From Chiloscyllium plagiosum (taxonomy: Eukaryota): a stretch of DNA of 64,000 nucleotides. This document shows positions 22,076 through 54,357 of the stretch, one piece after another. The position numbers and the translations under genes are program-made. Location of the stretch: positions 47,146,532 through 47,210,531 of the forward strand of contig NC_057723.1 of NCBI RefSeq assembly GCF_004010195.1, written 5' to 3'. The stretch's first letter is position 1; every line of letters begins with the position of its first letter. Below the pieces are notes generated by a model. That model was not told where the DNA came from and ran no database searches. It worked only from the letters and a program-made list of their open reading frames with translations.

Positions 22076-22714
22076 ACTTCATCTTCAGTATTGAGTATCA
22101 ATCAGGTCTCTTTAACTGGTTAGTGCTCAGTCCTTTAGATACCTGTCTTGAGGCAGGGAATTGACCTCTGATGAAGGAGAGACCTCAGAGGGTACACCAT
22201 CACACCCATCCTCCACATCTTCTACTAGTTTAGGTGTGCATGTTGGCTGAAACCACTACATCAACAGGTTACAGCATCACACAGGCATTAAACTGAATGT
22301 CAGAGTTTGTAAAGTCCAAGCCTCAGATGGATGAAAAACTCTGGAGTCATCTCGGTGAGGGCAGATGTCAGATATCTACTGGATGGTGCATAAAATCTTG
22401 AAAAGATTCTAAAGGCCACACAAAAGCTGGCAAGCAAACTGGAGAGTGTATCCAGACCATGAGTGGTGCAATTATCCTTCCATACTGGCAACTTGCATGG
22501 AGGAATGAATCAACAGAATTTTCCCAGGATGCTAAGTCCACATTTTACTGTCACAGAGTACAAGTCAGCAGAATCACTGTAAAAGAAATATAGAGTGCAT
22601 GGGGTGTCTGGTAACTGGGGAGAGCCAACGGGACCTCACAACAGCACAGGAGTAACAGCCATTTGGATTTTTGGACCCCTCTTATTGTTCTTGTGATGAT
22701 CATTGGACTGCATA

Positions 22715-22881
22715 ATTTAGATCAGAGTGGTGCTGGAAAAGCACAGCAGGTCAGACAGCATCCGAGGAGCATCCTCCTCCTCCTCCTCCTGCTCTTCGGA
22801 TGCTGTCTGACCTGCTGTGCTTTTCCAGCACCACTCTGATCTAAACTCTTGTTTCCAGCATCTGCAGTCCTCACTTTTGCC
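22715..22881 (+). mobile_element. Penelope-derived fold-back mini-element
   Basis: 56-bp arms 22716-22771 / 22790-22845, (TCC)6 loop, 36-nt tail; TSD CATTGGACTGCATA at 22701-22714 and 22882-22895. Confidence 0.92.
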
Positions 22882-23205
22882 CATTGGACTGCATAGACCA
22901 CCACCTTTTGAGTAGATCATTTTAAATAACTAAAAATGTCTTTAAAATACTCTATAGATTTATTTAATATTTAAGTGTACAAGTATCAGGAGCTCTTGTG
23001 GACAGCATTTCCTCTAATATTTTTCAGAGGTGCTGATTCTAATTGCCATATGTGGTATATAGAAGCAGCTGCATGCATATAGAGCCACGCACCTTAAAGG
23101 GAGCATTGTTTATGGGCTAGTAATAGAGTTTCTATCTCTGAAACCAGGAAGCCTGGGTCCAAATCCCACCTACTTCAGAGTTATGTAATAACATAACTCT
23201 GGAGT

Positions 23206-23425
23206 GGGCGGCACGGTGGGCCAGTGGTTAGCACTGCTGCCTCACAGCGCCAGAGACCTGGGTTCAATTCCCGCCTCAGGCGACTGACTGTGTGGAGTTT
23301 GCACGTTCTCCCCGTGTCTGCGTGGGTTTCCTCCGGGTGCTCCGGTTTCCTCCCACAGTGACTTGTTGGGCCGAAGGGCCTGTTTCCACACTGTAAGTAA
23401 TCTAATCTAATCTAATCTAATCTAA
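23206..23425 (+). mobile_element. Young HE1 SINE lacking the internal segment
   Basis: CTCCCACAGT joins directly to GACTTGTTGGG; (TAATC)n tail. Confidence 0.92.
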
Positions 23426-24591
23426 CATCTCTGAATGCATTGTTCCGAAGGTATTTTCAATTTCTTTGGAAATTGATTTTGAAAACCTGCCTATTAGAGC
23501 TTTTGCATCGAAAACTATTTTGCAGTAGCTTATTTGAAAGCCCATGAATGGCCACAATTAGCAGAATTCATTGGGTGATCTATTCAGTCTACTGGCATAG
23601 CTTGTTACATGAGCACAGCTGGCATCTAATATAATGCTTTTTAAACAAGCATAAAAGGTTATGGGAATCTCATTTGTACTTGAATTATTTCAATTATTTT
23701 ACTGCATCTGCTGAATTTGGGCAAACCTTCACTGTATCATTAGGTATTTATAGACTTTTGCATTGTCAAGGTGATCCATTCCATTGGGGAGGAAACGGAA
23801 ATTATTTGTTGAAACATACTTTGTACATTCTGACGTAATAAATTATAGGGAACCAGCGACACAACCGTGGCTTGAAATGTATCTCCAAAGAGAACAAAGC
23901 TAGCCTTCAGATCCAGCAGAGCTCAATATAGCTCAATTTAAAGGAGTTAAAGTAAGAGCATCACCAATAATAATTGAATTCAGTTGTTGTTCAGAATTTG
24001 CTTTCTAGCCTTTTTGACGCTTATATTTTATTGTGAGTTGACTCTGCTAAAGACTAAGATGTGTTATTGAAGCAAAGAAAGAAAACATCTGTTCCATAAT
24101 TTATTGTGGATATTGATCACAATTGTTTGAGCTTCAAAGATTTAATATTTATTTCTTCATAAAGGTAATTTCTTCTATGTGACTAATCAAAGTTTTTTGG
24201 TTAGAGGGAAATGAATGCATTCATTAGAGTCGATAGCATTTTACAATTATTACTTTCATTAGGCTCCACAAAACTATTGATGAAGACAAAAAATTTTGCA
24301 TGTACAATGTTTCTGTTATGGGTAACTACTGTAAGGCAACAGCTACCTATTTCCCTAAATAGCATTAATATTAAATTACAATATGCAAAATAGTCACATG
24401 GATATGTAGTGAGGTATGCTTTTCCTTTGCATGAGTAATAAGAGCTATTAAATATGTTTGTGTGTACTTTTTAGTATATTTATACCTGTCAAGTACACAT
24501 TTTATGATGTGTGCAGTGAAGTATATCAAGGACAATAATAATAATATATTTAGCTGGAAACGAATAATGTAGATAATACTTCTGTTCACTA

Positions 24592-24820
24592 CACGGTGGC
24601 ACAGTGGTTAGCACTGCTGCCTCGCAGCGCCAGAGACCCGGGTTCATTTCCCGCCTCAGGCGACTGACTGTGTGGAGTTTGCACGTTCTCCCCGTGTCTG
24701 CGTGGGTTTCCTCCGGGTGCTCCGGTTTCCTCCCACAATCCAAAAATGTGCNNNNNNNNGACTTGTTGGGCCGAAGGGCCTGTTTCCACACTGTAAAGTA
24801 ATCTAATCTAATCTAATCTA
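24592..24820 (+). mobile_element. Young HE1 SINE with an assembly gap
   Basis: HE1 head and tail separated by an 8-N gap. Confidence 0.92.
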
Positions 24821-26137
24821 CAAACTCAAAATCCCATAGAGAGGTTTGTTTTGGTTCAGAGTACAATATGGCACCAGAACTTATCTATTTCTTTACTTAT
24901 AGTTAAATGATTAGCTTTTGTTTTCAGGAAAATGTTAAACTGTGCATTGAATTTATGTAACAATATGACACCCAGATGCATAATTTATTTTGCAGGGAAC
25001 TGTAGTATGTGCAGTCAAACCAAATTTGCATCTCACCATGTGTTGGGTTTGCTGCTCCATCCTCTTTGAGTGCAGGAATCTAATCTGAATCATTCACCTC
25101 CTGGGTGAGGAGTGATGAACTTGCTCTTGCTTTTGTTCTATATTCACCCTTTGCCCTCTCAGTTTGTCACAATAAGGTTTGTTTGAACATAGATCTCTCT
25201 TCCTCTCAGACCAAATGAACTTATATTTTCAGAGGAGCCAAGTTAAACATGTTTTTTTGAATTAACAAAGAGGATGAATTTATTAATTACCGCAAGGAAG
25301 AAGAAATGCTATCAAAACACACAGATTAGAAATAAATGGTGATTTGTAAAGATATAAGTTTAAAAAGCAACCAGACCTATGAATTAGTCTTGGAATTGTT
25401 CAAAAGGGTTGATAGCTGAATGTTGCAGTCATTGCTATGGAGGTTAATGACAATGTTGGCATTTGAATTTGGTCAGTTTCACAACCCTCAACTTTGAAGT
25501 TGATTAAGATTGGATAGTTTTGACTCCTTTTGGTTGTGATTAAATTTAGAATTCAGGGTGCGTGAGACTCATTTTGTTGTCTTGTTTTCCCTTTGGCTGG
25601 TTGCTAGTTAGCTGACTTTGAGCACTGAGAGTGATAGAAATCTTTATGTGCAACACAGGGGTAACTAATAGTTCTGTGACTGTGATCTTCACAGCATCCT
25701 AACACTTGAATCCTTATGGGTGCTCATGAAAATGTTCAGTCCCAATAGCGCACTCCAGTAAAGTTTTTAATCCCTTCAAAGTGAAAAACACAAAATGTGA
25801 CTGCAATTTGGGATATATTCCGCCTGCTGTTAAGAGGGGGTGGAAAACCCCTCGTTATCTCTGTAGTCAGAGGATCACAGTCTAGTCAGTTTTGACTTTC
25901 ACTTTCCCCACTTTTTAAAGGGCTGTTGCTTGAAGTACTCTTTGCATCTATAACACCCATCCTTGTTCTGAGTCAAAAATAAACATAACTAATATTTTGC
26001 GACAGTCAAATGGAGCAATCAGCAGTTGGATTTTTATATAACAAACCCATGGAATTGATTGTTCCCTGAATATTATAATGTTCACTGCATATGAACTTCA
26101 AAAGCATAAAAGGGTATATAAAAGGAAGTGAATTTGG

Positions 26138-26432
26138 GTTGGCATTGTGACTCAGTGGTTAGCACTCCTGTCTCACAGCATTGAGGGCCCAGGTTCAATT
26201 CTACCCTTGGGCAACTGTCTATGTGGAGTTTGCATATTCTCCCCATGTCTGTGTGGGTTTCCTCCTGTAGTCCAAAGATGGCCATGCTAAATTGCCTGTA
26301 GTGTTCAGTGATGTGTAGGTTAGGTGCATTAGTTATGGAAAATGTAGGGTTACAGGGAAAGGGGTGGGATGTCTGAAGGTTGGTGTGGACTTGTTGGGCC
26401 AAATGGCCAGTCTCCACACAGTAGGGATTCTA
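26138..26432 (+). mobile_element. HE1 SINE (older)
   Basis: GACTCAGTGGTTAGCACT...GGTTCAATTC...GGGATTCTAT. Confidence 0.85.
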
Positions 26433-26444
26433 TACAATCAAAAG

Positions 26445-27240
26445 AATTCATCACCTGTGCCACAAGGGTCAGTGTTGGTGGCTCAACTTTTTGCAAGTTA
26501 TATAAATGACTTGGATGAAGGGATCAAAGGTAAATTTGCAAATGATACAAATATTGGTAGGAAAACAAATTGTGAATAGGATATTAGGAAGCTACAGAAG
26601 GACACAGATCAGGTTAATGAAAGGGCAAAGATCTAGCAAATGGAATATAAATGGGGAAATTGTTAAAGTGTCTATTTTTGGCAGGAAGAATGAAAAAAAA
26701 GCATGTTATCTTACCAGTGAGAAATTGCAGAGTTCTGAGATGCAGGAGGTCTTGGGTGTCCCAGTGTGTGAACGGCAAAAAGTTAGTGTGAAGGTGGAAC
26801 AACTATACAGGAAAGCTGAATGATGTTATCATTTATTGCCAGACCTGTACTTGCTGAAGTTTAGAACAGAAACAGGTGGCTTGATTGAACAATGTAAGAT
26901 TCTGAGCAGTCTTGACTGGGTGAATATGAAAATAATTTTTTTGTCTTTTGAGAGAAGCTAGAACTAGGGATCTCTATTTTAAAATAAAAATATCGCCAAG
27001 ATAGAGGAGGGAAGAAAATCTTTCTCATGGAAGGTTGAGTGTCAAAAGACAGTGGAAGCAAAGTTTTTTTTTAAGGCTGAGGTAGATTCTTGATAAGCAA
27101 GAGAGAGGGGGTTGAACGATTGTTGTGAATCGGCAGGAATGTGGAGTAGTCAGATCAGATCGCCCTTGATCTTAATGCATAGTGAAGTAGGCTTTTGGGA
27201 CTAAGTCACCTACTCCTATTCCTAATTCATATGTTCGCAT
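26445..27240 (+). mobile_element. CR1 LINE fragment, RT to 3' end
   Basis: PVPQGSVLVAQLFASYINDLDEGI.GKFANDTNIG (CR1 QGSVLGP..F..YINDL..KFADDTK). Confidence 0.85.
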
Positions 27241-27289
27241 TGTCATGGCCAATGGTTAAAAATTCAAAATACTGTGGGCATTTTTCGCT

Positions 27290-27930
27290 TGGCAATAAAC
27301 AATAGCATCAACTTTCCTGTAATTCCAAAACGTCTTTTTTGTAAAGAGGCCGCAGTGTAAACAATTCCAGCCTGGCTGTATAGAGGTGTGTTGCCACCTC
27401 TGATGGTTCTAAACAGCTGGTGGGACAGGATATGACTTGGGATAGTGTTGCTGCTGTCTGGGATATTGTGTGTAAAATATGATTCCATGAATACGACTGT
27501 GTCAAGCTGTTGCTCAACCGGGTGCTCCGGTTTCCTCCCACAGTCCAAAGATGTGCAGGTCAGGTGAATTGGCCATGCTAAATTGCCCATAGTGTTAGGT
27601 AAGGAGTAAATGTAGGGGTATGGGTGGGTTGCGCTTCGGCGGGTCGGTGTGGACTTGTTGGGCCGAAGGACCTGTTTCCACACTGTAATGTAATCTAATC
27701 TAATCTAATGTGTAAGACAGCTCTTCCAATTTTAGCACAAACCACCAGATGTTGGTAAGGAGGACTCTGCAGGGGCAAAAGAGGTGAGTTTGTTGTTTCT
27801 GATACTTGCATTAATGCCAGATGGTTTGTCTAATTATGTTCCTTTTTTCGAGATTTTTTAGAGGTTGGTAGAACTGAATGACTTGCTAGATGATTTCAGA
27901 GAGCATTGTTGGAGTCAAACTGCATTGCTG
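27290..27930 (-). mobile_element. CR1-group LINE endonuclease fragment interrupted by a 5'-truncated HE1 (27518-27708, plus strand)
   Basis: TVVFMESYFTHNIPD..TIPSHILSH..RTIRGGNTPLY resembles the APE N-terminus; the HE1 3' half has a TAATC tail. Confidence 0.65.
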
Positions 27931-28645
27931 CAAGGTTTTCAATGGGTCGCTCAAAACGGTTAGAGCAGTTCTGGGGTCACAATTGATTGGAGAAGAGGAC
28001 AGTTAGCAACGGAAGTAGAATAGAACTATTTAGTCGGACTGCTGAAAAAACAACCGAAACACGCTGCGTAAGTGCAATTCAGGATTCAGTGAGAAATCAA
28101 AAGCGGTTGGATACCTCTTTGCTGTTAGAACTCTGAATAATTCTGGGAGATACCAGAAACTAAGCTAGGGCTCCAGAAAAGTTTTAGAAGCCATTGGGGC
28201 TCAGAAAGAGCTGTATACCAACTGTACTTGAGTGCAACTGAGAGTGAGGATGAAGAAACATATAAGCAGTTTTAAGTTTTGAAGCTGAACCAGATTAGTG
28301 TTTAGGAAGCAAATCGAGTGGCAAAATTGTCTCTGTGAGGGCCACTGTTAGCAAATATTTGAATGTGTGTCTATGAGAAAGTGATAGAGTGCAGGTTCCA
28401 GAAATCCAGGAGAATGCAGGGAGGGTGGGCCATAAGGATATAAACAGTCATTGAGGTTGTTCATGCTGGACAATTCTTGAGGGAGTTTCATGGGTCAGGC
28501 TGACAAAAGCGATGAACTTGCTCATTTGCAAGTTTAAATGAGATTTGGAGACCGACATTATCAGCAATGTCTCGTTGGAATTGCTAAGAAATCTGTGGGA
28601 TATATCTTGAACACATTTGCTGAGAGTATTCAACCATAGTTTGTC

Positions 28646-29002
28646 TTTTTTTTAATTCATTCATGGGATGAGGACGTCACTGGCCAAGCCAGCATTTATT
28701 GCCCATCCCTAATTACCCAGAGAGCAGATGAGATTCAATGACATTGCTGTGGGTCTGGAGTCACATTTAGACCAGACCAGGTAAGGATGGCAGTTTCCTT
28801 CCCTGAAAAACAGTTGTGAACCAGATAAGTTTTTCTAACAATTGACAATGGATTCACAGTTATCATTAGACTCTTATTTCCAGATTTTACTGAGTTCAAA
28901 TTACACCATCTGCTGTGGCAGGATTTGAACCTGGGTCTTCAGAACATTACCTGGGTGTCTGGATTAATAGCCGAGCAATAATACCACCAGGCAGTTGGCT
29001 CT
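28646..29002 (-). mobile_element. Full-length tRNA-derived SINE sharing its 3' end with the LINE at 56515-57345
   Basis: Reverse complement has B-box GGTTCAAATCC and tail GGGATGGGCAATAAATGCTGGC...CCCATGAATGAAT plus poly-A. Confidence 0.8.
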
Positions 29003-29479
29003 CTATAATCTGCTCCCCATATTTGCCTCATGGTAATTCTAGAATGTTACACAAAAGTCATATTTATCTTTGCAAAGTCTATTTTTTTGTCAATCATCTT
29101 TACATGTTTGCTTGAGTAACCTTTTATTTGTAATAAATTCATTATTCTTTATGTAAGGAAACATGGCTGAATTGTTTATAATAGGAAATCAGTTACAGTC
29201 TGAGGCCTATACATTGATTAAATTTGCAATTATTGTGAGTATTGTTGGTGTGGGACAAGAAGGGAAACAGTGCATCCCTCCATTCTCCAACATAACACAA
29301 ACAATTTGTTACCTGTTGCCAACCAGAAAATTGTCCATTTATGTTTACTATTTCCTATTAGCTAGCTAGTCTTTCAATCATGTTAATCTGTTGCCCAACT
29401 TCCATTTTAAAATTATGTGACATAATTACATTTAACATGACCCCAACTCCATTCAAGTCTATTACATCACAGATCTGGT

Positions 29480-30200
29480 TCTTTCTCTGTTCTCCTATAA
29501 TACGTTCTCTTTAGACGTTCTCTGGGTCTGAAGACTGTTCATATTGATTCTTCTGACGGTGAGAGCTTCAAAAGTCCCTTTTAAACCGAAGGACTTTTAA
29601 TTCCTTGAAATTCGTTTGGAGGAGGACATCTCCCTGCTGAAACAGGCAATTGTTCCTATCCAATATTGGAAGATCTTTAATCTTGTACCTTTCCTTTGTG
29701 GAGAAAGGCTGCCTTGTTACTGCAGTATCCTGAATTTCCAAATCAGACATTTTCTGCTTTACAATATGCTGGATCATTGAAGATTGGTCAACACCTCTTA
29801 GTGGTTGCTGGCATAGAGTTGTATACACATCATTTTCAATATGTATCAGCAAATGTTTCTCCCAATATGGTGGTAAATCTGTGTTGAAGTAAGACAACGT
29901 ATTAGTTCATGTATTGATCAGTTTAGATACTTTCATTCACCCTCAGTGATTACATTATTGGTCAACATTTACACTTGCTTGATCCTGCTTTTTGAGGATT
30001 GCTTCTTGCTTGGAAGGATCTCTGACACTTTTACTGAGTATCTATTCTCTCTTGGAATACTTATTATTTCTCTTTCATTATGGAAGGTTCTTTCTCATTA
30101 ACTTCTTTGCGTGAATAGGTACTTAACAACTTGGTTTTCTGAGACTGTGTTCAGCCTCTGCACATGTTCTGAAAATGAACTGTTGTGTGGCAGATTAATC
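29480..30200 (-). pseudogene. Possible ancient non-LTR RT fossil (R4/Dong-like)
   Basis: RGVDQSSMIQHIV...LFQQGDVL loosely matches RG.KDQL.I...GIFQGDSL; spacing is too short and decay is heavy. Confidence 0.3.
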
Positions 30201-30360
30201 ATTCACCTTTAAAAACTGGGCACTATTTAGAAGCTTTTTAAGAACAATGACACGAAGCAGCCTCCATAACTATTTTTCTCAGCAGTTGTAGACAATACAG
30301 AATTGTTGCATCTGGACCTTGCTGTCATTGTGATCAACTGAATTGAATGTTGTAGATGCA

Positions 30361-30585
30361 GGGAGGGAGAAAGTGAGGACTGCAGATGCTGGAGAGTCAG
30401 AGTCAAAGTGTGGCACTGAAAAAGCACAGCAGGTCAGTCAGCATCTGAGGAGCAGGAGAGTTGACATTTTGGGCATAAGCCCTTCATCAGTCCTGATACA
30501 GAAATTATGCCCGAATCGTCAACTCTCCTACTCCTCAGATGCTGCTTGACCTGCTGTGCTTTTCCAGTGCCACACTTTTTGACTC
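30361..30585 (-). mobile_element. Penelope-derived fold-back element with back-to-back decayed hammerheads
   Basis: Arms about 30398-30490 / 30493-30587; TSD TGTTGTAGATGCA at 30348-30360 and 30586-30598. Confidence 0.92.
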
Positions 30586-30599
30586 TGTTGTAGATGCAC

Positions 30600-31410
30600 T
30601 TCAGAGAAAACTGATCAATATTTGAGGTAGGTTAGAGCATAAGCTGATGGAGTTATATGAAGTAGGATGGATGGAAGCTGTATGGTGCATAAATATCGCT
30701 AAATACCAGCTAGGACAAACTGTCTTTACTATGCTGCATATTCTATGTAATCCAATACATAGAAAAGGGCCATTTAGCTATATTATGTGGAAAAAAGAGG
30801 GAACTTGGATTTTTGCATGGAATATAAAACAGATATTACAGCAACTATGTAGTATGTTGGTAAGACCCTATTTGATGTACTATGCATAAATTTGAGCTCC
30901 TGATATGAAAAAAATTGTTTTAGAAATAGTTCAGAGAAAGTACACTAAATTGATTCCTGGGATAAAAGACTTATCTTATGAAGAAAGATTGAACATGTCA
31001 GGTCTATATTCCCTATAGTTTAGAAGAGTGGAGTACTATTTTGTTGAAACATATCAGATTTTGAGGTATTAAGCAAGGTAGATATTGAGAGAATATTGCC
31101 TCTTGGGTGAGAGTAAAACAAAAAACATAATTTAAGAGTAAGAGAACTCCCTTTGAATACAGAGATGAGGAGGATTCCTTTCCCCTCTGAGGGTAGTGAG
31201 AGTGTAGAATTCTCTTCCCCAGCAGGGGAAAGTTTTAAACTTATTGAAGTCTGTGTTAGATAAGTTTCTAATAGACAAGCAAGTCAAAGTTATAGGGTGT
31301 GGACAGGAAAGTGGAGCAGAGGCAACAACCACATCAATAATGATCTTATTGAATGGTGGAACAGACTTAAATGGCCTAATGACCAGTCTCTGCTCCTAAG
31401 TTCCATGTTA
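30600..31410 (+). mobile_element. Two old CR1 3' fragments
   Basis: ILQQLCSMLVRPYL.Y, SYEERL-like codons, CR1 tail ending CTCCTAAGTTCCATGTT. Confidence 0.75.
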
Positions 31411-31888
31411 CCATACCATGCTTGCATATAAGAAAGAAAAAAACTTTTTTAAAAGTGAAACCTTGGAGGATCCTATTGTGTACTTCCCTCAATGCAGCAA
31501 AACATCAGATTATCAGTAGTCACTTCCACCAGTTCCTCACTCAATCATGTACCCAATTTACCATCATCCACTTAACTTCGTACTTTCCTTTTCCAAATAA
31601 TTTGCTAATATGACATTTAAAATGTATTTGTTAAAGTCCAGAAAAGTATTTTTGAGTTAATTACCTTCATTAACAATCTCTGAACCTCATTGAAGAACTA
31701 AGATCTAAGATCGAAAATGGCGGCGATCTGAGAAGGTCGTACTGCAGAGCCTCGCATCATAGCAGGAATGGGACGGTCCTTTAACCCGCCCAACCCAGAT
31801 CATCGGGATTTCTTGGAACTCTGGAAAGATTGTGGAGTCCCAGGAAACATCTAAAAATTAACTTACCTGTATTTTTAGCCGTCCAGAA

Positions 31889-32704
31889 ATGCCGAAAAAG
31901 GGAGGAGGAGCATCCGAGGCCGGGCCTGCAGTTCAGCCTGCAGCAGCCTTGAAGCCAATTACTCTCCAGGGCCTGATGAACCAGCTCTTGAAATCTCGCG
32001 AGATGCTGGGGAAACGGGTTGAAGAGAAGCTGGCTCCAATCTCCCTCATGCTGCAGAAGCATGAGCAGCAGCTGGGAGACTTGGAGAAGAGGACGGATGA
32101 GGTGGAGCACAGTGTCACAGTGGTGGAAGCAGATGCCAGTTCATTCAAGGATGAGATCCAAGCCCTGAAGATGCAGGTTTATAATTTGCGTGACCAAGCA
32201 GATGATCATTGAAAACAGGGGCAGGAGAAAAACATTCGGATCATCGGTCTGCCTGAGGGTAAGGAAGGTGAGCGGCCTGTGGAATTTGTTGAGGACTGGC
32301 TGCCGAAATTTCTTGACTCGGAGACTGGCATGAGAGGATTGAAGACAGAGAGGGCTCACCGGGTCGCAGCACAGAGATCGGGTCTGGGTCAATGTCTTCG
32401 TCCTCTCCTGGTGTGGTTCCATCATTACCGGGATAAGCAGAGAGTCATGGAGGGTTCCAGGGTCCAGGGGAAGGATCCAAAGGCCCTAATTTACGAGGGA
32501 TCTAAGATCATGTTTTTCCAGGACTTTTCAGCGGCGGTGATCCAGAAACGAAAATCTTACCTTGGTGTCAAGAGAAAACTGAGAGAGCTTGGGATTTAGT
32601 ACTCTCTGAGATATCTGGCAGTGCTTTGGATCACTTTAGATGGATCCATTCATCTCTTTAACACATCGGAGAAGGCAAGATACTTTGTGGACAAACTAAC
32701 CTAA
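31889..32704 (+). pseudogene. L1 ORF1p (coiled coil, RRM, CTD), frameshifted
   Basis: Heptad region, ENRGRRKNIRIIGLPEG after a frameshift near 32210, ERAHR, FFQDFS..KRK; in-frame stop at 32597-32599. Confidence 0.9.
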
Positions 32705-33082
32705 TTTGAACAATTGTAGCATGTATAAATAGTATTGCTTGGGTATGTGTTTATCATTCTGTAAAAGAAACGGAGGGAATCTGGTTGTAGTTTTATTTTT
32801 CTTTCTTTTCTTCTATTGATAATTATTTGGTTTAAACTATGTCTGACAGTGGTTAAGATGTACATTTTCAATTTCTAAGTTAGGATATACCAAAGGATGG
32901 GTGGGGTATTTATTTCCCCTTTTTTTCATAAAATAATCTTTTAACAAATTTTGTAGATTTGTTAAATGTAATGGTTTTAGTTTATGTAGTTTTTATATTT
33001 GGTGGATCATGTGACACTAAGGCTCAGCAGTTTGTGGTTCAGGCTCCTCCTGTCTAGAATTTAAATATAATTGCAGAAGACT

Positions 33083-36000: not shown

Positions 36001-37234
36001 GCCCTTCATTAAATTAGCCAAACTGCAGTTGCCTCACAGACTGGGGGGAGTGGACCTTCCAGACATTAAAATGATCAATTAAGCTTGCTTTTGATCTACC
36101 TGAGTGATTGGGTTTGTGGGGATCCTCTTACAATATGGCTAGATATCGAAGCCTCCCAGGCAAGGTGCCCCCTTACCAGTTCGCTGATTTTGGACAAGAT
36201 GAGGACAGTTAGAGAATATTGCCATTATCCAATAGTCATCAATACTGTTAAAGCATGGAGGGCAATTTGGCAGAGGGAAGGCAATATTGGCAAAACATCT
36301 TTTTTTACACTTTTAGTGGGTATGCTGGGTTTTCAACCGGGTATGATAGATTCAGGATTTAAACGTTGGGCAGCTGGGGTGTCTTGCATGGGCGATTTAT
36401 TTGAGGGGGGCGTAATGATGTCCTTTGATCAGTTAGTATGGAAGTATGAGTTATCTAATAGAAACCTCTTTAATTTTTTTCAAGTTAGGGATTTTGTTCA
36501 AAAAAAGTCCACACTTTTGACTGATCCCTGCAAATCCAACATAGAGAGAGGGATGCTAAGGGCTAAGAGTACACTCTCTGTCAATACTTTATATCATCAG
36601 GTAGGGGGTGCCACTTCAGATGAGTCTGATCAACTCTGCAAGATGTGGGAAAGAGAGCTGGGTGTTGAAGTTTCCTCAGAGGCATGAGAGGATGCTAGGA
36701 AGATATCAATTTGCAATAGGACCCATGCTTTACAGTTGAAGATTCTCCACAGGGTCCACTTGGCTCCGGATCATTTGTCAAAATTTAAACCATGGGTATC
36801 TTCAACATGTCCCAAGTACAAGGTCTGTACGGGCACTCTTACCCATTGTCTTTGGTCTTGCGATAGGCTTCAAACATATTGGAATGCTGTGGTGGGTGCA
36901 ATGAAGAGGATTTTGGGTGTAGGGGTGGAGAAGGACCCTATCTCTCTCCTTTTGGGTCTGCCCACTGTATTTCCTGCAGACGTGCATAAGAATAAACTTT
37001 TCAATATTCTCATGTTCTGTGCAAGAAAGAATATCTTGCTAGGTTGGATATCCTAACCCCCCACTCCCAGGCCTGTCGGGTTGGCGGAAGATTGTTATGG
37101 AGCATATTCCCCTGGATTTTCTCACAAATATGGTCCACCACAAAACTGAGAATTTTTACAAGACATGGCAGCTCTTTTTGGAATACCTTGACACAGATTT
37201 ATCTGCCACAGTAACAAGGACTTTTTTTATATAG
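33083..37234 (+). pseudogene. L1 ORF2p (APE endonuclease, RT, C-terminal CCHC), multiply disrupted
   Basis: NVYCAP, IIGGDFN, TRIDFFL, ADH, GKTPGSDGLPSEFY, YRPISLLN, SLYTDN (YADD position), GGVDLPD, CPKY...LTHCLWSC. Confidence 0.92.
34780..35180 (-). mobile_element. HER1/CR1 3' fragment inserted in the L1 RT domain
   Basis: RTRGHRF..QRVVHVWNELPEEVV; splits the L1 sequence GFIKGRR / NNVRRLL. Confidence 0.93.
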
Positions 37235-37237
37235 CCA

Positions 37238-37905
37238 ATAGACAATAGACAATAGGTGCAGGAGTAGGCCATTCTGCCCTTCGAACCAGCACCACCATTC
37301 ATTATGGCTGATCATCCTCAATCAGTATTCTGTTCCTACCTTATCCCCATAACCTTTGATTCCACTATCCTTGCGAGCTCTTTCCAACTCGTTCTTGAAA
37401 GTATCCAGAGACTTGGCCTCCACAGCCTTCTGGGGCAGAGCATTCCATACACCAACCACTCTCTGGGTGAAGAAGTTTCTCCTCAACTCTATTCTAAATG
37501 GCCTATCCCTTATTTTTAAACTGTGTCCTCTGGTTTGGGACTCACCCATCAGCGGAAACATGCTTCCTGCCTTCAGAGTGTCCAATCCTTTAATAATCTT
37601 ATACGTCTCAATCAGATCCCCTCTCAGCCTTCTAAACTCAAGCGTATACAAGCCCAGTCGCTCCAATCTTTCAGCGTAAGATAGTCCCGCCATTCAGGGA
37701 ATTGACCTCGTGAACCTATGCTGCACTCCCTCCATAGCCAGAATGTCTTTCCTCAAATTTGGAGACCAAAACTGCACACAATATTCCAGGTGCGGTCTCA
37801 CCAGGGCCCTGTACAGCTGCAGAAGGATCTCTTTGCTTCTATACTCAATTCCTCTTGTTATGAAGGCCAACATGCCATTAGCTTTCTTCACTGATTGAAG
37901 AAAGC
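37238..37905 (-). mobile_element. CR1 3' fragment inserted at the L1 ORF2/3' UTR boundary
   Basis: LYRALVRPHLEYCVQFWSP, SYAERLERLGL, FFTQRVV; (CTATTGT)n tail. Confidence 0.93.
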
Positions 37906-39379
37906 CATAACGATTGTGTTTCATGAGTCCAATATCCAGGGAGGAGGAACTGTGAATGTATGAGTGTTTTGTTTGGCTAGGCTGAGTTATTATTATTTAT
38001 TTGTTTGTTGTTCGTTATTTATTTATTTAGTTAAATAGCTAGTTTAGGTTTTTTTTAAATTTTATATTTTCCTATATATGTTTATACATTTGTACAAGAG
38101 GGTGGGTTGGGGATTTTTTTATTATTTGGGTTTGTTTTTGTATTATTTTGAATTGCATTGCTTTGTACTTGTTGTAATATTAAAAAAACTATTTTTTCTC
38201 AATAAAAACATATTATAAAAAAAACTAACAAGGAATTTGGTTTCAAAGAAAATGTTAACAATATGTTAATGTATATAGTTTGAATCAGACCATGTGTGCC
38301 TATGAAATGGTGAACTATATCAAATTGGTTCCATAACTTCATACATGAGGGGATCCTATCAGTGAGCAGGGACGGCAACCATAATGGCTGTTTCGATCAC
38401 TGGCTAAGGGCCAAAGGAAAGTCCTTTGGAGAGAATCAAATAGGATGGGATTGGCACCAGCCCAGGATTTTATTGGGAAGCCAAACGAAGGCTTACTGTC
38501 CTTCCTGCCTTCACACTAAAGTAAGAAATGAAATGGTAAACTTCCCTTTTTCGGTCATATCCTCCAGAGGTCTCTTTTTAAAGCCCAAAGACGCTGACCA
38601 AAGATTGCATGTTTATTATTTATAGATTCAAATCTCAAAGGACCAAAAACCATCTTTAGGCTCCCCAACTGGACAAGAAGTGGTCCTGAAGTCAGTATCA
38701 ATCATGTACTATAAACACCTACACTTAGTGTCTACACTAGCATTCGCATCAAGACACTGACACTTCTGGCTTGGAATTTTTGCCATATTGGATTCTTAGG
38801 TATCCATTTGACACTGGTAATATGGTTGAAATGCCACCACATTTCTAGGATTACATTTCTATCATGCACAAATTGCCAAAATATAAATCCAAAGTGCTAT
38901 TTTTATTGCCAAATTATGATATGATTCTGAATAAATGGCAATCTTGTAACGGGGTTACCTAATGAAGTTGGTACTGTTTCATCCACACCAAATAATGGAT
39001 TTCAGCAAATCCCATCTGTTTGGGATTGCGTAGCTCCATATGGTGCACTTTCAATGATGGCTGCAGAAACTAATCCTGGATAAATTGGTTCTTTTTGTGC
39101 TGCTCATGCATGTTCAGTCTATGTGATTGAAAATGGATGAAGACATTATTGTAAGTGAATTGAAGCTGGAGTTTCATATACTTTACATTTTTACCTCTTC
39201 AATGACCTAGCATCCAGCAGATGTAGAGCCAACATTTTGGTCCATTCAAATGACAATGACTCTGCTCATCCTGGTAGTGGTCTAAGCCATTTTCACTTGA
39301 AGTTCGCATCTAAAGACAGCAAGTGATAGCAAAGAACACAACTCACAATGGGCAGCATTGGCACTGATGGTTGTCTGAT

Positions 39380-40980
39380 TATCAAATGCTACCTCAGAGT
39401 CTGCACATGTCCATTCACCTTGCTCTACCCAACAGCCCACCTCCATCTATTCCCCTTCTGTAGAAACTCATAAAATTGAACTTTGCCTCCAACTGTCCCA
39501 TCTCTTCCCAACACTACACTTAAATGATGCACACCTGGTCTTCTAACCACCCCCTGTGAATGCCATAGTTGTAGTCACAGCCAATAAACACCCGTACCGT
39601 GCTTACCATGTACTCCGCTGCTATTCCACCGACTTGCCATCACCACACATGCCATATACCTTAACCTTCCCCAGTCATCATCCTTGTCCAGACCTCTGCA
39701 CATGCCTTGAATTTGCCAAAAGGGACAGCAAGGGATTGTGTTCAGGTGGAAGGAGTGATCTGTACCTCCCTCAATGAACAATGGATGTACTCTCAGGACC
39801 CTCAGGACTACATTCACTTTAGACCTTCATTCCCTAGTTTTTAATGATAGTAACCTAGACTTGACTGGCTAGATCCCAGACCACAGTTTGCTGCTCTGTG
39901 CTGGATGATATGCAATTCCCTTGATGTCTTGTGATGACCCTCTGACTACAGTTGGCTATATTCCATGTCCATGCCTGGTTCGAGTGGATGACTGACCGTG
40001 GCCAGCCCTCTGAGTCTGTTACCGCTGGTGCAAGAATCCCTTATCTGAAAGCAGCCATCCTTGACAGGAGTGTGGTATAGCCTCCCTACTCGCACTCTAC
40101 TGTGGCCATTTTGCTTGGGTAAATGTGCAGTATATTTGCTGCTTAGGCAGCTGGTACATGCTGTAGATGTTAGACTGATGTCTCAGTGTGCTGTACAGTA
40201 GCATGACTTACTCACTCCCAAACAGATCTTTACTGACAAGCAACTTGCTATGTGCCTGTGGAAAAAATTGCATCAATTCAGCTGTACTGATAGCCTTTGG
40301 CTCTGGCTGAAGTGCCAATGTGCCAACAGGCAGGTCACAGCATGGCAAGGCAAGTCATAGATGCTGTGGGCATGTAGGTAGGTACAAAGTAAGTGAGTAC
40401 TAAGAAAGCAAGGGAGCAGGCACCAAAAATGCAGCCTGGTCCACACCATGAGCTGGTTGTCTGTTTTTACAACAATCTTTCAATGCTAATTGCTGGTGTG
40501 CCCTGCAATGGAAGTTTGTGCTTCCTAATTGTTCTGCAAATGGATTGGAGATGTGGCATGAGGATCATGAGGAGTTGACAAATGTCGAATGCCAATGCCG
40601 ATAGACAATGGGTTTAAGTGCCGGGTCTATGGATCATGCCCTGAGATGCTTTTTGCTGCTGAATAAGATAGACCTTCAAAGGTGTGCTGAAACTGCCAGG
40701 GGTATTCTCTGACTTCCATGTCTTGATTTCTAGCTTGTTTGTTGCATTTGGTAAGATAGGAAGCTGAACAATGATGGGGTGAATGATAGCATCAACAAAG
40801 TGTTTAAAAGCTATAATCCTCCCTGTTTAGGAACTTGCTGCTGCCAAGGGAGCAACTTGCCTGGATGATCAGCAAGTTGCTCCTGATGTCAAGATGCATC
40901 CATCCAGGCTTCTCACATGATTTTGCCATAAACCTGGCCATTGCCTATGTTGCTCATGTTCTTTTAAGATTCTGCCACCT
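39380..40980. mobile_element. Second old copy of the Harbinger-derived family at 1440-4385
   Basis: ATGCAGCCTGGTCCACACCATGAGCTG and GGAGATGTGGCATGAGGATC align with 3898-3924 and 4034-4052. Confidence 0.5.
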
Positions 40981-41049
40981 CAGCTTCTTCATGATACCTC
41001 AAATCTGCAAATATTCTAGGAATTCTCTTAGGATCTTTCCATAAAGTCT

Positions 41050-41700
41050 TTCCCTCCTTCTGGCATACAATTTTAAAATATTCTCATAGGGGGGTCAACC
41101 TGTTCCATAGGGAGTTTTGATAAACTTATGCCTTTATTTATGAAATTCAATGTAACCTTGGTTTTAGGTATTTACAACTACACCATTGTCAGGCATTTGC
41201 ATGCAATTTGGTTCTTATTATGTACCAGTTCCCCTTCTTTGGACTTGATCTTATGTTAACAGGGTGTCTTAGGAATGTTCTCATGGACTACTTTACAATT
41301 TTAGAGGTTACCCTTTGGTCTTCTAGGATGCCTTCTTCATTCTCACTAACTCATTCAGTGAGTGATGTAATAACAATACTTTCAGTATCTAAGTCAACAA
41401 ATGGGATGTATATGGATTCACCCAGAAGCAGAATTGGAGACATTAATTAATATTTTCAATAATTATCAATTCTCTATTCCTCCTAAATCCCCAACAGCAT
41501 TCACTTCTAAAAGCCACAGTATTGAAATTGGCAAATTAACACACCAGTTGGCAAAAAATGTATTTTGAGAATAACTGACAAATATTTCTACACAAAGCAG
41601 CCCACACTCTAAACACACATTCTGCAGATTGTCAAGATCACCACTGATTTGGTTCCATTGTACAGAGATAATGTTGCAACATTTTAACTCGGTAGTCATT
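41050..41700 (-). mobile_element. Ancient L1-like endonuclease fragment
   Basis: FANWCVNLP...NAVGDL loosely matches L.NIYAPN...IIGGDFN. Confidence 0.3.
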
Positions 41701-41836
41701 ACTGTATATCATCTCAATTGCAGATATCACTTTAACAAATGGCAGTGTTGATTGTAATTGATAATCATGGTGGTACACATATGTTAGTGATAGCACTTAG
41801 GTCTTTCGTCAATTAGTATCTCCTAAGTGGCAGCTG

Positions 41837-42014
41837 GTTAAAAAAATCACACAACACCGGGCTATAGTCCAACAGGTTTATTTGGAAGCACTAGCTTTCA
41901 GAGCACTGCTCCTTCATCAAGTCAGCAGTGCTCTGTGATTGTGTGATTGTGTGATTGTGTGTTGTGTGACTTTTAACTTTGCATACCCCAGTTCAACACC
42001 GGCATCTCCAAATC
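41837..42014 (+). mobile_element. Penelope-derived fold-back mini-element (second subfamily)
   Basis: AAATCACACAACAC at left, GTGTTGTGTGACTTTTAAC at right, 37-nt tail; decayed minus-strand hammerhead near 41890-41920. Confidence 0.8.
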
Positions 42015-43654
42015 GCTGCTTTCTCTATGTATGTACGTATCAAGCTCTTGGACATGTATAGGCAAATGGACCCAAGGTAGCAGATTTTATTTCTTTCCCT
42101 GCAGCTATTATTCAGAGGGATCAAGGATGGGGATGTGATATTCTGTACCATAACAACATTTACAGTAAGGTAGAATGATTTATGGTGATGGGGGAGTCTT
42201 TGTAGCTGAGTTCAAAAGAACAACTGAACAAATTCAACTTGGTGGCAATATTGGATCAGTGCTAAACTTGAAATAGTTAATATTTTACACTTGAATATTT
42301 AATTAAGAATGGTATGCAATTTCCCGAAACATCCAAACATGCATGCTTATTTCTCAATTCTGTCTTCCCTGAATTTTAGAATGTAATCAGAATCAGTTGT
42401 ACAAAGTTTATGAGCTTGGGAATTCATAATTATGGTGACTTAATTGCCTTGACATGGATTAGTGCCCCACCAGAATGTTACAGAGCTACATTGAAGTTAA
42501 TGGTATGTGCACTGCTGGAATTTGTCCAGGAATATTTAAGAGATTCTGTCAGGAGGAAGAATTATCGCATTCATATGTTTAATCAATATGACCCGCAAAG
42601 AGTCTTTGCAAATAGTAACTAAGGACCAATATGATTCCTAAAGTCCCCTGTAAAATATTTCCAAAAACACTCACCATCAAGCTTAAATAGGATGTTGTCA
42701 AATGAATGAATCTTGACTAAATGGGAAGTATGGTTAACTTTGTTGGAAAGTAATACAAGGATAGTTAGTAATTTAATTTATTTGGCAGGGAACATGACAA
42801 TTTGGCAGCCAGCATCCATGAAGTTGATAAGTGTGAGGGAATACAGTCTCCAATATTTCTATTCTATGCATGTCTTTTATATAAAATAGCAAGATTCCAA
42901 TCAATAGAAGTTACATAAATTTGTCCATCTCAACTCTTAGATTGAATAATGGAACAAACTGATAGTGTTTCTATTTGCTTTGCCTTTGCTGGTGCTGAAA
43001 TCATAGGTTGAAATGATTCACAGTCATCGCATTAATTATTAAATATTTAGGCTCAAACAAAAAGGTATTACTACTATTTATTAATTATTCTTAGACTTGG
43101 TTGATGTTTTGACAATCTTTGAATTTAACTGTAACTAAAAGAATGCTCTTAGAAATTAATTATGAGTCAATGATATTGCACAATACTTTGCCAACATTAA
43201 ACTTGGGAAATTATGGCCATGAATTATGTTCTGGACTTGGCTTTTTAAAATTAATAGCAGAACATATACTTATTGAATAGAGATAATCTGGTAAATATCT
43301 ATCTTTCTATCCAGGGAAAGAATTAAATGTGGACTTCTTAACACTCTATTATCTGTCAGTTTAAGGAAAACAACTCCATCAAAGTATCCGTTCCAAGATT
43401 TACCCCAGTAGCAGGCTTGATTCAGAGCTGTGATAGAGGAGGCTTCTTACCCACCTGATGACTGATCATGGCCAAACTCAGGACTGTGTGCAGATTGCAT
43501 CCTTAATTGATGGGACCTTCTGACCAACAGTATCCCTTTCCCCTGACTAGATTGAGGACTAGCCCTCAACGACTTTGTGACTTGACTTTTGTTGAATAAA
43601 TGTGTAGTGCATTAGTTGCACAAACAGCTAGCACATGCTATCAGTGTTAGAATG

Positions 43655-43912
43655 ACATCTCAGGGTGCCGTACAGCATGTCTATATGGGTTACCTCCAAA
43701 TGCTCAGGTTTCACCCCACAGTCCAAAGATATGCAGGTTAGGTGGATTTGCCATGGGAAATTGTCCATAGTGTCCAAGGATGTGCAGGTGAGCTGGATTA
43801 ATAATGGGAAATGCAGGGTTACAGAGGTAGTATAAGATGTGTTGGTCTGAGTGGGACGCTCTTCAGAGGGTTGGTGGGCTGAATGGCCTGCTGTTATACC
43901 ATAGAGGTTCTA
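43655..43912 (+). mobile_element. Old partial HE1 SINE
   Basis: CCACAGTCCAAAGATATGCAGGTTAGGTGGATT...GAATGGCCTG. Confidence 0.8.
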
Positions 43913-44377
43913 TTATACAACAGAGTTTCCTTTATTTTCCATTTAATGTGGTGGTCTTTCACTGAAACATAAGCTCATAAATGTGCAGATTTATTTAATA
44001 ATAAGACAGAAGTTTATTACGCAAAAGGAATTTAACAAAAAGAAACAAACCAAGTTATCTAATTGAAATAAAATTTGAAATACTTCAAAGCTCTCAACAA
44101 AATAAACTCCCATCTACTCCCTGGCATCTTTCCTTACAATTAACCAAAATCCATAGAAATTCCTTCCCCATCAAATCTATTGGTTTGATATAATTGTTTC
44201 TTCTCAGACTTGGTCCTATGAGCTATGAGACTTTTTCCTCCAATCTTCACAAAACTGAGTGCTTAGACTTTCTTAGACCTGAACAATCTGTAGGCTTCTA
44301 ATCAAACACTCTCAGTTTGGAGGTTTTCACAAACTTTACATTTTCCCTGACTGCTTTGAACAATCGTCTTTGTTTAG

Positions 44378-44946
44378 CCAAAGTCAGAAGTCACAAAACA
44401 CCAGGTTATAGTCCAACAGGTTTATTTGAAATCACAAGCTTTTGGAGCGCTGTTCCTTTGTCAGGTGAAGTGAAGAGAAGCATACAAACACAGAATTTAT
44501 GTGCAGAGAGATAATGGTAAGATAATTCCAGATAATAAGTGTCAAAAGATAAATACAAATAAAGTGAGTGGAGTCGACAGGCTGAAGAACAAGCCTTTGC
44601 AGGTGACAGAAGTGTCAAACGGTGGTGTATGAGTAAAGTGTCAACAGCTGAATGGCAAGTGAAAGGATGACCTATGATCCGATTCATAGTTATAAAAAAA
44701 ATCAAAAAGATAAGATGGTGCTAGAGCCAAACCAAATGGCTGTAATAACATGACAAGTATAAATGTCGCATGACGAGGGCCCAACCATTGGGCACAACCT
44801 TTGCCTATGTGCTTCTGTCCACTTCACCTGATGAATGAGCAGTGCTCCGAAAGCTTGCAGTGTCAAATAAACCTGTCCGACTATAACCCGGTGTTGTGTG
44901 ATTTCTGACTTTGTCAACCCCAGTCCAACACCTGCGCATCCACATC
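44378..44946 (+). mobile_element. Penelope-derived element with inverted ends, each carrying a hammerhead motif (second subfamily)
   Basis: 44379-44480 is the inverse of about 44815-44913; plus strand CAC CTGATGA ATGAGC AGT GCTCC GAAAGCTT at 44825-44856; 33-nt tail; imperfect 9-bp TSD CTTTGTTTA / CTTTCTTTA. Confidence 0.82.
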
Positions 44947-46277
44947 CTTTCTTTAAGAGAGACTATACTGACATATGACTTCAATGAGATCTTCTTCAAA
45001 CTGCCCAAAGGCTTTCCAATGTCTGTGTTTTTCTAAGATAGAATCAATCCTGGATTCTAAAATCAGAACCAAGCTGCTATATTTCAAAGCTTTCTCTCTC
45101 CAATTGTAAACCTCCAAAATATAACAAATTTGCACTACTACTCCAGGAGTCACATGCTAATTTGAAATCATGGTTCTGTAAAGACTGACTTAGTTAATTT
45201 TTAAACGCTTCAGAATATGTCAGTAAAAGGAATGCACCCGTATATGGAAGTTATACCTTTCATCACATTGTTGATTACAAGGAATGTTAAATTCAAGTAA
45301 AAAGGTATCATATGTTTAGGGCATGTTACAGGCAGCTGAAAGGATATGGAGAAAATAGTATGCTAATTCTTGCCATCAGTGCAGAATTAAATATAGCATA
45401 ATTTCTTTCTACAGTACTACAGAATTATCAATTTCATGTGTATATTCCAAGAGATGCAGAGTAGGACAAGGGCAAAGCTGAGAGACTCTGGAAGGAAATA
45501 TGCAACAAGAAACTTAAGTGAACAAAAGCAACTGTGAATTGATATTCAGTGCAGCTTGCACTATAACTATTGGTCGTTGATAAAATAATCAACAGATTAA
45601 AACGTGACCCAGTATGACAATGGATATATTAAGTCCTATGATCCACAAAGAATTACAATTTAAATAGATTCAAAAAGAGAGATGTGGAGCACAGGAGGAC
45701 TAACATTGCATACTTATAAAGTAATTAACAGTGTAAACACTAAGATTTTACAATAATGCAATAAAGCACTGATATAACTATTTCTTTTATATGTTTAAGG
45801 TATAGAATGGCAATTACTGGGCCAGTTACAACATGTTTTGCTGCAAAATAATCTTGCATGTGCACTGATGGAAATCAGGAATTAAGTTAGTGATCTATAG
45901 ATAGAGCAGGAAGTCAAAGTCACCTCCAGGAAGTAGTCTCACACAGATTGGCTATCAACTAGTTCCAGTAAAATTGCAGACTCCTGTGGACTTTATATGA
46001 TAAATTTTTAATATTCTTAACAGTAGATAAGTAACATGAATATTAAAGATGACATTAGCTGTCCGTTCTGTAACAGGGTGATAGCAGCCCCAGCGAATGA
46101 ATATGTCTATCTCCAGATAAATTTATCTATCTATGGGGAGAGTTGGTGCACATTCTGGGCCACCTACTTGAACTGGTACCTAACTGTTCAGTTATATCAC
46201 AGAAGTTCAGTATTGCTTGCCTATTTTGAATTTACAGATGAAATCAAAGCCTGTGGTGAAACTGTTGAAATTTACTT

Positions 46278-46361
46278 AAGAGAAACAAAATTGCTGGAGA
46301 AACTTAGCAGGTCTTAGAGAAAGCAGAGTTAACATTTTGAGCCCAGTGACTCTTCTTCAGA
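46278..46361 (-). mobile_element. Isolated PLE terminal-repeat arm with decayed hammerhead (third subfamily)
   Basis: Reverse complement TCTGAAGAAGAGTCACTGGGCTCAAAATGTTAACTCTG. Confidence 0.7.
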
Positions 46362-46874
46362 TGCAAAAGAAAGATGGGATGTGCATTTCCACACTTTGTT
46401 TTCTTGAGGAACTTGCTTTTGATTGCCTTTGTGGATTTGGAGAGTAATTTTGTTGGAGTCATAGGTTCTTTAGCCCCTGAATTGTGTTGGATAATTAATA
46501 AAACTGCCTTTGGCTTTTTGAAACCAAAATGTCCATGCATGGAGAGTATTGACCTGTGTTGCTTTGTTGACACATTATTGATAGAGATAGGTCAGCTAGT
46601 CATTCTGTTTCTACCTTTGTTCATATGCTTGCAAGATAGATGAGGGACAAATTCAAAGATGCTTATTTTAAGGCTCAAAATTGCCAATATATTCACATCA
46701 GAAGGCAAAAGCTCATCTCAAAATGAACAAACATCCATTATGACTGCAGGAGGCACATACTTGTTTAAAATTGTGGTTCTAGAAAGACAGACTTAATTGA
46801 TTTTTAAAATCCTTCACAAGAATAAAATAATACCCATATGTCATAAGTTTAGAGTTCAAATTATTAAAAATGAT

Positions 46875-47082
46875 AAAAACTGAAAGAACTTCAGATGCTG
46901 TAAATCAGAAACAGAAACAGAAATTGCTGAAAAAGCTCAGCAGGTCTGGCTGCATCTGTGAATGGGAATGTTTCGGGTCCAATGGTTCTGAGGAAGGGAC
47001 ACTGGACCTGAAATATTAACTCTGATTTCTCTTCACAGACACTGCCAGACCTGAGGAGCTTTTCCAGCGATTTCTGTTTTGT
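46875..47082 (-). mobile_element. Penelope-derived fold-back element (third subfamily)
   Basis: Inverted arms, 34-nt tail, GTT CTGAGGA AGG..CCT GAAATATT AAC core; TSD TTATTAAAAATGAT at 46861-46874 and 47083-47096. Confidence 0.88.
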
Positions 47083-53901: not shown

Positions 53902-54283
53902 AGTTTCCTCATTTCCCCTCCCCCCACCCTGTCTCAGTCAAATCCATCAAATTCAGCACCGCCTTCCTAAACTGAGATCTTCTTCCCGACCTCTCCGCCC
54001 CCACCCNNNNNNNNNNNNNNNNNNNNNNNNNNNNNNNNNNNNNNNNNNNNNNNNNNNNCACCTTGACCTCTTTCCACCTATCACATTTCCGACGTCCCTC
54101 CCCCAAGTCCCTCCTCCCTACCTTTTATCTTAGCCTGCTGGACAAACTTTCCTCATTCCTGAAGAAGGGCTTATGCCCGAAACGTCGATTCTCCTGTTCC
54201 CTGGATGCTGCCTGACCTGCTGCGCTTTTCCTGCAACACATTTCCAGCTCTGATAACTCCAGCATCTGCAGACCTCACTTTCT
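53902..54283 (+). mobile_element. 5'-truncated Penelope terminal repeat with N gap
   Basis: Reverse-complement match to 2580-2797 and 3200-3340; TSD ACTCTATAAGCC at 53890-53901 and 54284-54295. Confidence 0.9.
54155..54190 (+). ncRNA. Minimal type I hammerhead ribozyme motif
   Basis: AUUC CUGAAGA A GGGC UUAU GCCC GAAAC GUC GAUU; one mismatch in stem I. Confidence 0.82.
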
Positions 54284-54357
54284 ACTCTATAAGCCTGACT
54301 GACAAACTTAATTATTTCTCTGGCATAATTCCTAGATTATTTAGTGAATATTCATTG

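Follow-up and report, generated by a model that had tools for sequence, protein, structure and literature searches.

Head-to-head Penelope-like arms in the window

The window analyzed here is a 64,000-nt stretch of the Chiloscyllium plagiosum genome (contig NC_057723.1, positions 47,146,532 to 47,210,531) carrying five short insertions derived from the ends of Penelope-like elements (PLEs). Reading and alignment confirmed all five (22715-22881, 30361-30585, 41837-42014, 44378-44946 and 46875-47082) as genuine head-to-head pairs of arms, at the places where a sequence-only reading of the window had put them. Each has a tail of 33-39 nt on one side only, and the perfect target-site duplications (TSDs) that the same reading had claimed for three of them are present at loci 1, 2 and 5, with lengths of 14, 13 and 14 bp. 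A TSD was sought at loci 3 and 4 and was not found. The description of the insertions as built only from Penelope ends does not extend to locus 4, where about 290 nt of the inverted arm of about 400 nt are element body (76% to a long family-B copy). The five loci fall into three sequence families: A (loci 1 and 2, of two different subfamilies), B (loci 3 and 4) and C (locus 5). The coordinates of all arms, tails and TSDs are listed in Table 1.

Table 1. Arms, tails, junction filler and target-site duplications of the five fold-back insertions (positions in the window).
Feature	Coordinates	Strand	Remarks
Locus 1 left TSD	22701..22714	.	14 bp; perfect repeat of 22882-22895
Locus 1 inverted tail-less arm	22716..22771	-	family A
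Locus 1 junction filler	22772..22789	.	short (CCT)n run of a kind rare in this genome
Locus 1 direct arm with tail	22790..22881	+	arm 22790-22845; tail 22846-22881, 36 nt
Locus 1 right TSD	22882..22895	.
Locus 2 left TSD	30348..30360	.	13 bp; pairs with 30586-30598
Locus 2 tailed arm	30361..30497	-	family A, other subfamily; left-side tail 30361-30397, 37 nt (39 nt if a 2-nt microhomology is assigned to the TSD); extends to a predicted minimal hammerhead core at about 30490
Locus 2 inverted tail-less arm	30485..30585	+
Locus 2 right TSD	30586..30598	.
Locus 3 inverted tail-less arm	41838..41924	-	family B; TSD not found
Locus 3 short direct arm with tail	41959..42014	+	shortened to about 55 nt; tail about 36-37 nt; short tandem filler before the arm
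Locus 4 long inverted tail-less arm	44379..44787	-	family B; runs into the 3' body of the element; TSD not found
Locus 4 direct arm with tail	44799..44946	+	tail 44914-44946, 33 nt
Locus 5 left TSD	46861..46874	.	14 bp; pairs with 47083-47096
Locus 5 tailed arm	46875..46989	-	family C; tail 46875-46908, 34 nt
Locus 5 inverted tail-less arm	46985..47082	+	ends at the family-C run-off hot spot
Locus 5 right TSD	47083..47096	.

Both flank-element junctions of locus 1 were recovered in contigs of independent runs, from this organism and from a second one whose flank is a few percent divergent; no contig runs across the whole hairpin. The independent recovery of both junctions, including in the second organism, means that the insertion is real and old and not an assembly artefact. 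Among RNA data sets, none was listed as containing locus 1.

Abundance and orientation of paired arms

A blind sample of 140 stretches of 10 kb, taken at round coordinates on 38 large contigs (1,358,647 non-N bases), was searched with profiles built from real copies and yielded 431 arms (243 of family A, 112 of C and 76 of B). Wherever two arms of the same family lay no more than 60 nt apart they stood head-to-head (86 of 86 pairs), and neither tail-to-tail nor tandem pairs occurred. These 86 pairs in 1.36 Mb bear out the proposal that such hairpins are a common product. They correspond to 63 fold-backs per Mb (51-78), which extrapolates to about 200,000 copies in a genome of 3.56 Gb. In family A alone, an exact pattern designed for young fold-backs matched 17,178 loci. 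Two duplicate loci (L021 and L028) were left out.

Assembly gaps are frequent inside long fold-back copies (L048, L133, L165 and L186), and long inverted arms are therefore undercounted in the assembly. At L210:8005-8653, a fold-back is nested in an inverted arm that belongs to an older one, and the two have separate TSDs.

A preferred tail offset and a one-tail asymmetry

Tails were identified first and TSDs next. A threshold calibrated on shuffled flanks retained 69 of the 196 tailed arms, and the other 127 were dropped. An inverted arm opens 55 of these 69 TSD-bounded tailed insertions, a count from which short inverted arms can be missing. The offset between the two arm ends has a median of 37 nt, with 40 of the 55 at 33-39 nt, 45 at 29-42 nt and 10 above 42 nt. 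The fixed second priming or cut site suggested earlier thus survives as a preferred site, though not as a strictly fixed one. The offset itself is a known property, because reverse transcriptase (RT) starts in vitro at two internal sites that bracket the tail (PMC11167929), and the offset matches these two sites. Insertions of 585, 1141, 1531, 1636, 2923 and 3257 nt have offsets of 34-39 nt, and the mini-hairpins are therefore the short end of one series. The TSDs measure 14-16 bp in 41 of 53 cases, and at the tail-less end a microhomology of at least 2 nt to the TSD end is present in 18 of 39 loci against 2.8 expected.

The 3' ends of the blind arms are bimodal (the tail is optional), and the way in which tails combine is strongly constrained. 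Eighty blind pairs join a tailed to a tail-less arm, six are tail-less on both sides and none is tailed on both, against 18.6 expected if the arms chose their start independently (p 7e-16). The conclusion from 0 of 86 that doubly tailed pairs never occur had to be corrected: they make up 2 of 51 pairs in a set chosen by pattern, and patterns of equal length matched 273 of them genome-wide versus the 17,178 fold-backs (about 1.6%). A TSD bounds none of eight doubly tailed pairs but 51 of 68 ordinary pairs (p 6e-5), and these 51 pairs within one TSD uphold the view that each hairpin integrated as a single event. Three doubly tailed loci have common element sequence past a tail, so that the tail there is internal to the transcript and some of these ends are not true termini. 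The doubly tailed pairs are L250, L256, L326, L334, L343-L345 and L348.

Junctions between the arms

Among 155 pairs we distinguished 148 junction keys. Two of the repeats were window loci fetched twice, and four keys recur in two or three loci, each at a microhomology. The best genome matches to loci 1 and 5 have 92% and 82% identity and other junctions; no query with the whole hairpin was made for locus 2 or 3. Identical junctions are frequent where both arms are complete, and they recur because both arms stop at one hot spot. A perfect-palindrome junction was found at seven loci of three subfamily classes, a one-base-spacer junction at eight loci of two classes, four in each orientation with respect to the tail, and a longer-spacer junction at four loci of three classes. 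Since identical junctions are shared between subfamilies and can face either way with respect to the tail, they arose independently. The test proposed with the sequence-only reading, by which identical junctions at different loci would mean that the hairpin itself amplifies, is accordingly misleading. The separately mobilised non-autonomous class that it was to detect finds no support in these data, with junctions mostly unique and shared ones crossing subfamilies. The same counts differ from the common ends, common junction and single lineage of a family resembling short interspersed nuclear elements (SINEs) or miniature inverted-repeat transposable elements (MITEs). Loops of zero or one base account for 15 of 51 junctions. 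Partner arms belong to the same subfamily, with a median divergence of 8.6% versus 17.7% to other arms.

A telomerase-like general addition of (CCT)n at junctions, prompted by eight query-biased matches, was rejected after only two exact matches were found genome-wide and none in 88 blind pairs. In two subfamilies, truncated direct arms carry (CCT)n runs at their 5' ends (22772-22789; L002, L004, L010, L012-L014 and L020), which resemble iterative RT slippage.

Element identity and predicted RNA features

The arms have the organization of a PLE pseudo-long terminal repeat (pLTR) with an optional tail of 30-40 bp, adjoined within one TSD by an inverted, 5'-truncated copy. The derivation from PLE ends is supported, and a long family-A copy carries a GIY-YIG-like region, as for a C-terminal endonuclease. 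The top Atlas match of that copy (L117) is a GIY-YIG domain cluster (0.94, 192 shared features), an assignment that applies to family A only. Its frames also contain motifs, recognized by eye, that we take to be RT motifs; the Atlas matches to these frames (0.94) are unnamed, and similar motifs lie at about 2850-3030 in the window. Pfam gave nothing relevant on eight broken fragments, and PDB was likewise blank on broken fragments.

A hammerhead motif is predicted in the arms from its core boxes, helix II and palindromic helix III, identified by eye after PMC4209133, and helix II also appears in consensus folds. The Rfam search did not report a hammerhead; for locus 2 it gave a microRNA-hairpin match that fell short of the threshold. 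In all three families, despite their different sequences, 7-9 nt in the core of the tail are complementary to a segment lying 45-60 nt upstream, and the two RT start sites would flank the 3' strand of such a stem; consensus folds back it only in family B. A conserved stem between tail and upstream segment was dropped as a candidate on account of weak consensus folds that differ between families and single-sequence z-scores of -1.3 to 0.6. The family-A RNA seems to run past the tail as ...CCTAG (e.g., window 22860-22885), where a branch-point-like motif, a pyrimidine tract and an AG together resemble a 3' splice site; a matching donor site was not seen. The tail of family B ends at an ATG.

The window holds further copies. 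A rearranged longer one (2584-3180) combines a family-A tailed arm and body, an RT-like coding piece in the opposite orientation and a second, tail-less arm on the same strand. Further single PLE arms lie at 54100-54290 (family A, young, with tail and body), 61972-62120 (old, tail-less) and 46283-46361 (family C, old). An inverted pair of another repeat (11819-12747), with pieces 76-93% complementary and 450-720 nt apart, probably represents two opposite SINE-like copies.

A common stop point with an extra G

The number of copies covering the element falls from 183 to 43 at a single point, some 133 nt from the tail end. In families A and B, the end lies no more than 8 nt upstream of the predicted hammerhead core for 38 of 68 inverted arms and for 25 of 68 direct arms, and only two arms of each kind reach more than 12 nt further (20 of 88 pairs, of family C or with weak alignments, were left out of this count). 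An exact match in which both arms end at the stop point was obtained for about 4,490 loci. In family C, 74 of the 100 matches listed (of 385) to long copies have TCAGTT at the stop, and none of the 100 inverted arms listed (of 215) runs 6 nt into the body. The stop point is the A of TCATTC in family A or of TCAGTT in family C, motifs that we take to be the initiator (Inr) consensus. Transcription of Penelope from D. virilis starts inside the pLTR at an Inr (PMC2377424, in the part available). An alternative run-off at G rather than A in family C, taken from query-biased loci, was abandoned when an unbiased listing gave T at 57, C at 25, A at 16 and G at 2 of 100 matches listed as the next base.

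The base just 5' of the stop A is C or T in long copies. In fold-backs with a spacer, the same base is G in 1023 cases versus A in 333 (GC 41%), and in family C it is G in 16 versus A in 1 among the matches listed. A frequent 5' G has served as an argument for capped L1 RNA (PMC2831318, in the part available). The extra G was found on six tail-less and four tailed arms among 30 scorable loci of an unselected set, and also on both arms at once. Both arms therefore look RNA-templated.

Proposed mechanism and alternatives

The anatomy of the hairpins, their TSD length, one-tail asymmetry, modal offset, common stop, extra G, microhomologies and independent origin are direct observations. We propose, with a probability of roughly 0.7, that each hairpin is a separate, dead-end PLE insertion produced by a double cut, priming at two sites, run-off at a likely capped 5' end and head-to-head joining. 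The enzyme would cut both target strands with a stagger of about 14-15 bp, and one strand would be primed at the distal start site, giving the tail, and the other at the proximal one. Both cDNAs would run off the probably capped 5' end of the RNA, as the two starts are only some 95 and 130 nt away, and would then be end-joined head-to-head by microhomology or short filler. The stop point would mark the transcription start and the extra G a copied cap, as the signs in the DNA suggest. The two primings may be coordinated in one complex, with one RNA copied twice under strand displacement or two RNAs held on a dimer, and the long arms could come from the downstream pLTR of read-through transcripts. 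Cutting and extension of both strands, and the two internal RT starts on either side of the tail, have been seen in vitro (PMC11167929). A wider version of the proposal, for and against which we see equal weight, is that PLEs integrate by coordinated double priming, with a dimeric enzyme, a staggered cut of 14-15 bp and one preset RNA start per strand. Most events would end as paired strong-stop-like cDNAs because the start sites lie so close to the cap, and the same reaction on the downstream pLTR would yield a full element with inverted pLTR and tail.

Several points weigh against the double-priming proposal. Ten of the 55 inverted arms begin beyond 42 nt, well away from the preferred site. 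The TSD threshold kept no more than 69 of 196 tailed arms, and at two of the window's five loci a TSD was not found. The pattern counts take in young, exact-matching copies only. A transcription start and cap at the stop point are likely, and the signs for them are all at the DNA level. RTs can add untemplated bases without a cap, the stop point is more spread in family B, and in families A and C it lies where helix I of the predicted hammerhead has its 5' edge, as a structural stop might. The paired arms share a subfamily, and their divergence does not imply that they were copied from the same RNA molecule: among 36 family-A pairs the partner is the closest arm just 9 times, and a median of 4.6% of other arms are closer. 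Finally, top and bottom strands did not differ in start-site use in vitro (PMC11167929, main text), whereas the strict one-tail asymmetry requires coordination.

The coincidence with the hammerhead invites the explanation that double priming did occur but that the stop reflects RT stalling or RNA processing at the hammerhead, at the 5' edge of helix I or at the cleavage site, and not a cap. The hot spot indeed lies 3-5 nt before the core, at that edge, in families A and C, and 4 of 46 blind direct family-A arms end at the predicted cut site (+28/+29). A stall, however, would be expected at the 3' foot of the helix and not after the helix has been copied through, and it does not predict the threefold excess of G. 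Cleavage as the main source of arm ends was set aside when only 4 of 100 direct arms among the matches listed (100 of 6,915) began at the cut site and 3 of these 4 showed microhomology to the opposite arm. Uncleaved RNA was the main substrate in vitro (PMC11167929). We consider this explanation unlikely, and slightly more so one of snap-back self-priming, in which the 3' end of the cDNA folds, copies itself and halts 36 nt short. Snap-back comes near a proposal in the available part of PMC3846280, where palindromes at inverted junctions in rotifers are read in this way, and it would account for the one-tail asymmetry and the same-subfamily arms without coordination. It fits poorly with the frequent loops of zero or one base (15 of 51), which end-joining of two cDNAs explains instead, and with an extra G on either arm or both. 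Inverted arms, moreover, extend to the hot spot in 38 of 68 cases, tailed arms less often, in 25 of 68, and the tail-less end is microhomologous to the TSD end, as in priming from the target.

Amplification of the hairpin as a unit, by a non-autonomous family, has the copy number (about 200,000) and the recurrence of some junctions at many loci in its favor but is largely refuted and very improbable. The recurrent junctions are spread over three subfamily classes and face either way with respect to the tail; the best matches to loci 1 and 5 reach only 92% and 82% with different junctions; and lengths form a continuous range up to 3.3 kb. A hairpin transcript would, in addition, probably need a promoter that the truncated arms lack. 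PLE arms are dense enough (431 in 1.36 Mb) for nearby inverted copies to be considered as two independent insertions or products of later recombination, and the doubly tailed pairs (TSD in 0 of 8) may arise so. For TSD-bounded copies this origin is refuted, and we give it the least credence of all: 51 of 68 tailed and tail-less pairs sit in one TSD (p 6e-5 versus doubly tailed pairs), and tail-to-tail or tandem close pairs are absent from the blind sample.

Significance

The inverted-arm architecture and the tail offset are already published. The available part of PMC8557442 calls the origin of PLE inverted repeats and one-sided tails undefined, and the in vitro study leaves the later integration steps open (PMC11167929). 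We found no report of paired cap run-off, or of one start per strand, in PLEs in a literature search that lay outside older subscription papers and the supplement of PMC11167929 (Figs S1 and S2, possibly relevant), and the available parts of PMC8969392 and PMC12910113 contain nothing on a paired run-off mechanism. If the wider proposal of coordinated double priming is true, the roughly 200,000 hairpins would be a fossil record of the reaction and of the transcription start of the element. The stubs give exact predictions for the existing assay: the cut stagger, one start per strand, cap copying and the RNA start base. PLE hairpins are liable to be misfiled as MITEs, microRNAs or a new family, and near-perfect 100-bp hairpins at about 60 per Mb could be a large source of double-stranded RNA, if transcribed. 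The hairpins are thus ordinary as an element and useful as a precise, testable record of mechanism.

Comparison with known systems

In the available parts of the literature, insertions of endonuclease-bearing (EN+) PLEs have an inverted 5'-truncated pLTR and a one-sided tail of 30-40 bp (PMC8557442), an inverted pLTR 37 bp shorter with a 31-bp tail and a TSD of 8-10 bp (PMC3846280), and a 34-bp repeat in Penelope (PMC2377424). The shark hairpins share with EN+ PLEs the head-to-head arms, one-sided tail, TSD, a putative hammerhead-like pLTR motif and long versions with RT-like and GIY-YIG remains. Unlike the published cases, most consist, on each arm, of no more than the first ~130 nt of the presumed RNA; they have TSDs of 14-16 bp and number about 200,000. 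The closest in vitro counterpart is Poseidon from Anolis carolinensis (PMC11167929), in which two RT starts also bracket the tail, both strands are cut and extended, the hammerhead spacing is similar and a dimer is predicted. The inverted arms are left unexplained there, and neither a strand bias in start use nor primer homology was reported, whereas here each strand has one start and microhomologies of 1-3 nt are present.

Non-LTR retrozymes and dispersed minimal hammerheads are likewise non-coding and PLE-derived and bear hammerheads such as are predicted here, and close opposite-strand hammerhead pairs have been noted in Schistosoma (PMC4209133; 10.64898/2026.07.22.740005; both in part). 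Retrozymes, as described in the same partial sources, are tandem direct repeats thought to amplify via circular RNA, unlike the inverted pairs with unique junctions described here. The blind sample contained no tandem close pairs against 86 head-to-head ones.

In twin priming of L1, the second target strand primes internally on the RNA and generates an inversion inside one TSD with a microhomology joint. The process is mentioned in the available part of 10.1101/2024.12.14.628481. The shark hairpins resemble it in the proposed internal priming by the second strand, inversion within one TSD and joining by microhomology. In L1, however, the second site is variable and the two cDNAs span different parts of the RNA, whereas here the site is preset, with a sharply modal position, and the arms overlap the same interval. 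The hairpins work like L1 twin priming but are not L1-type products.

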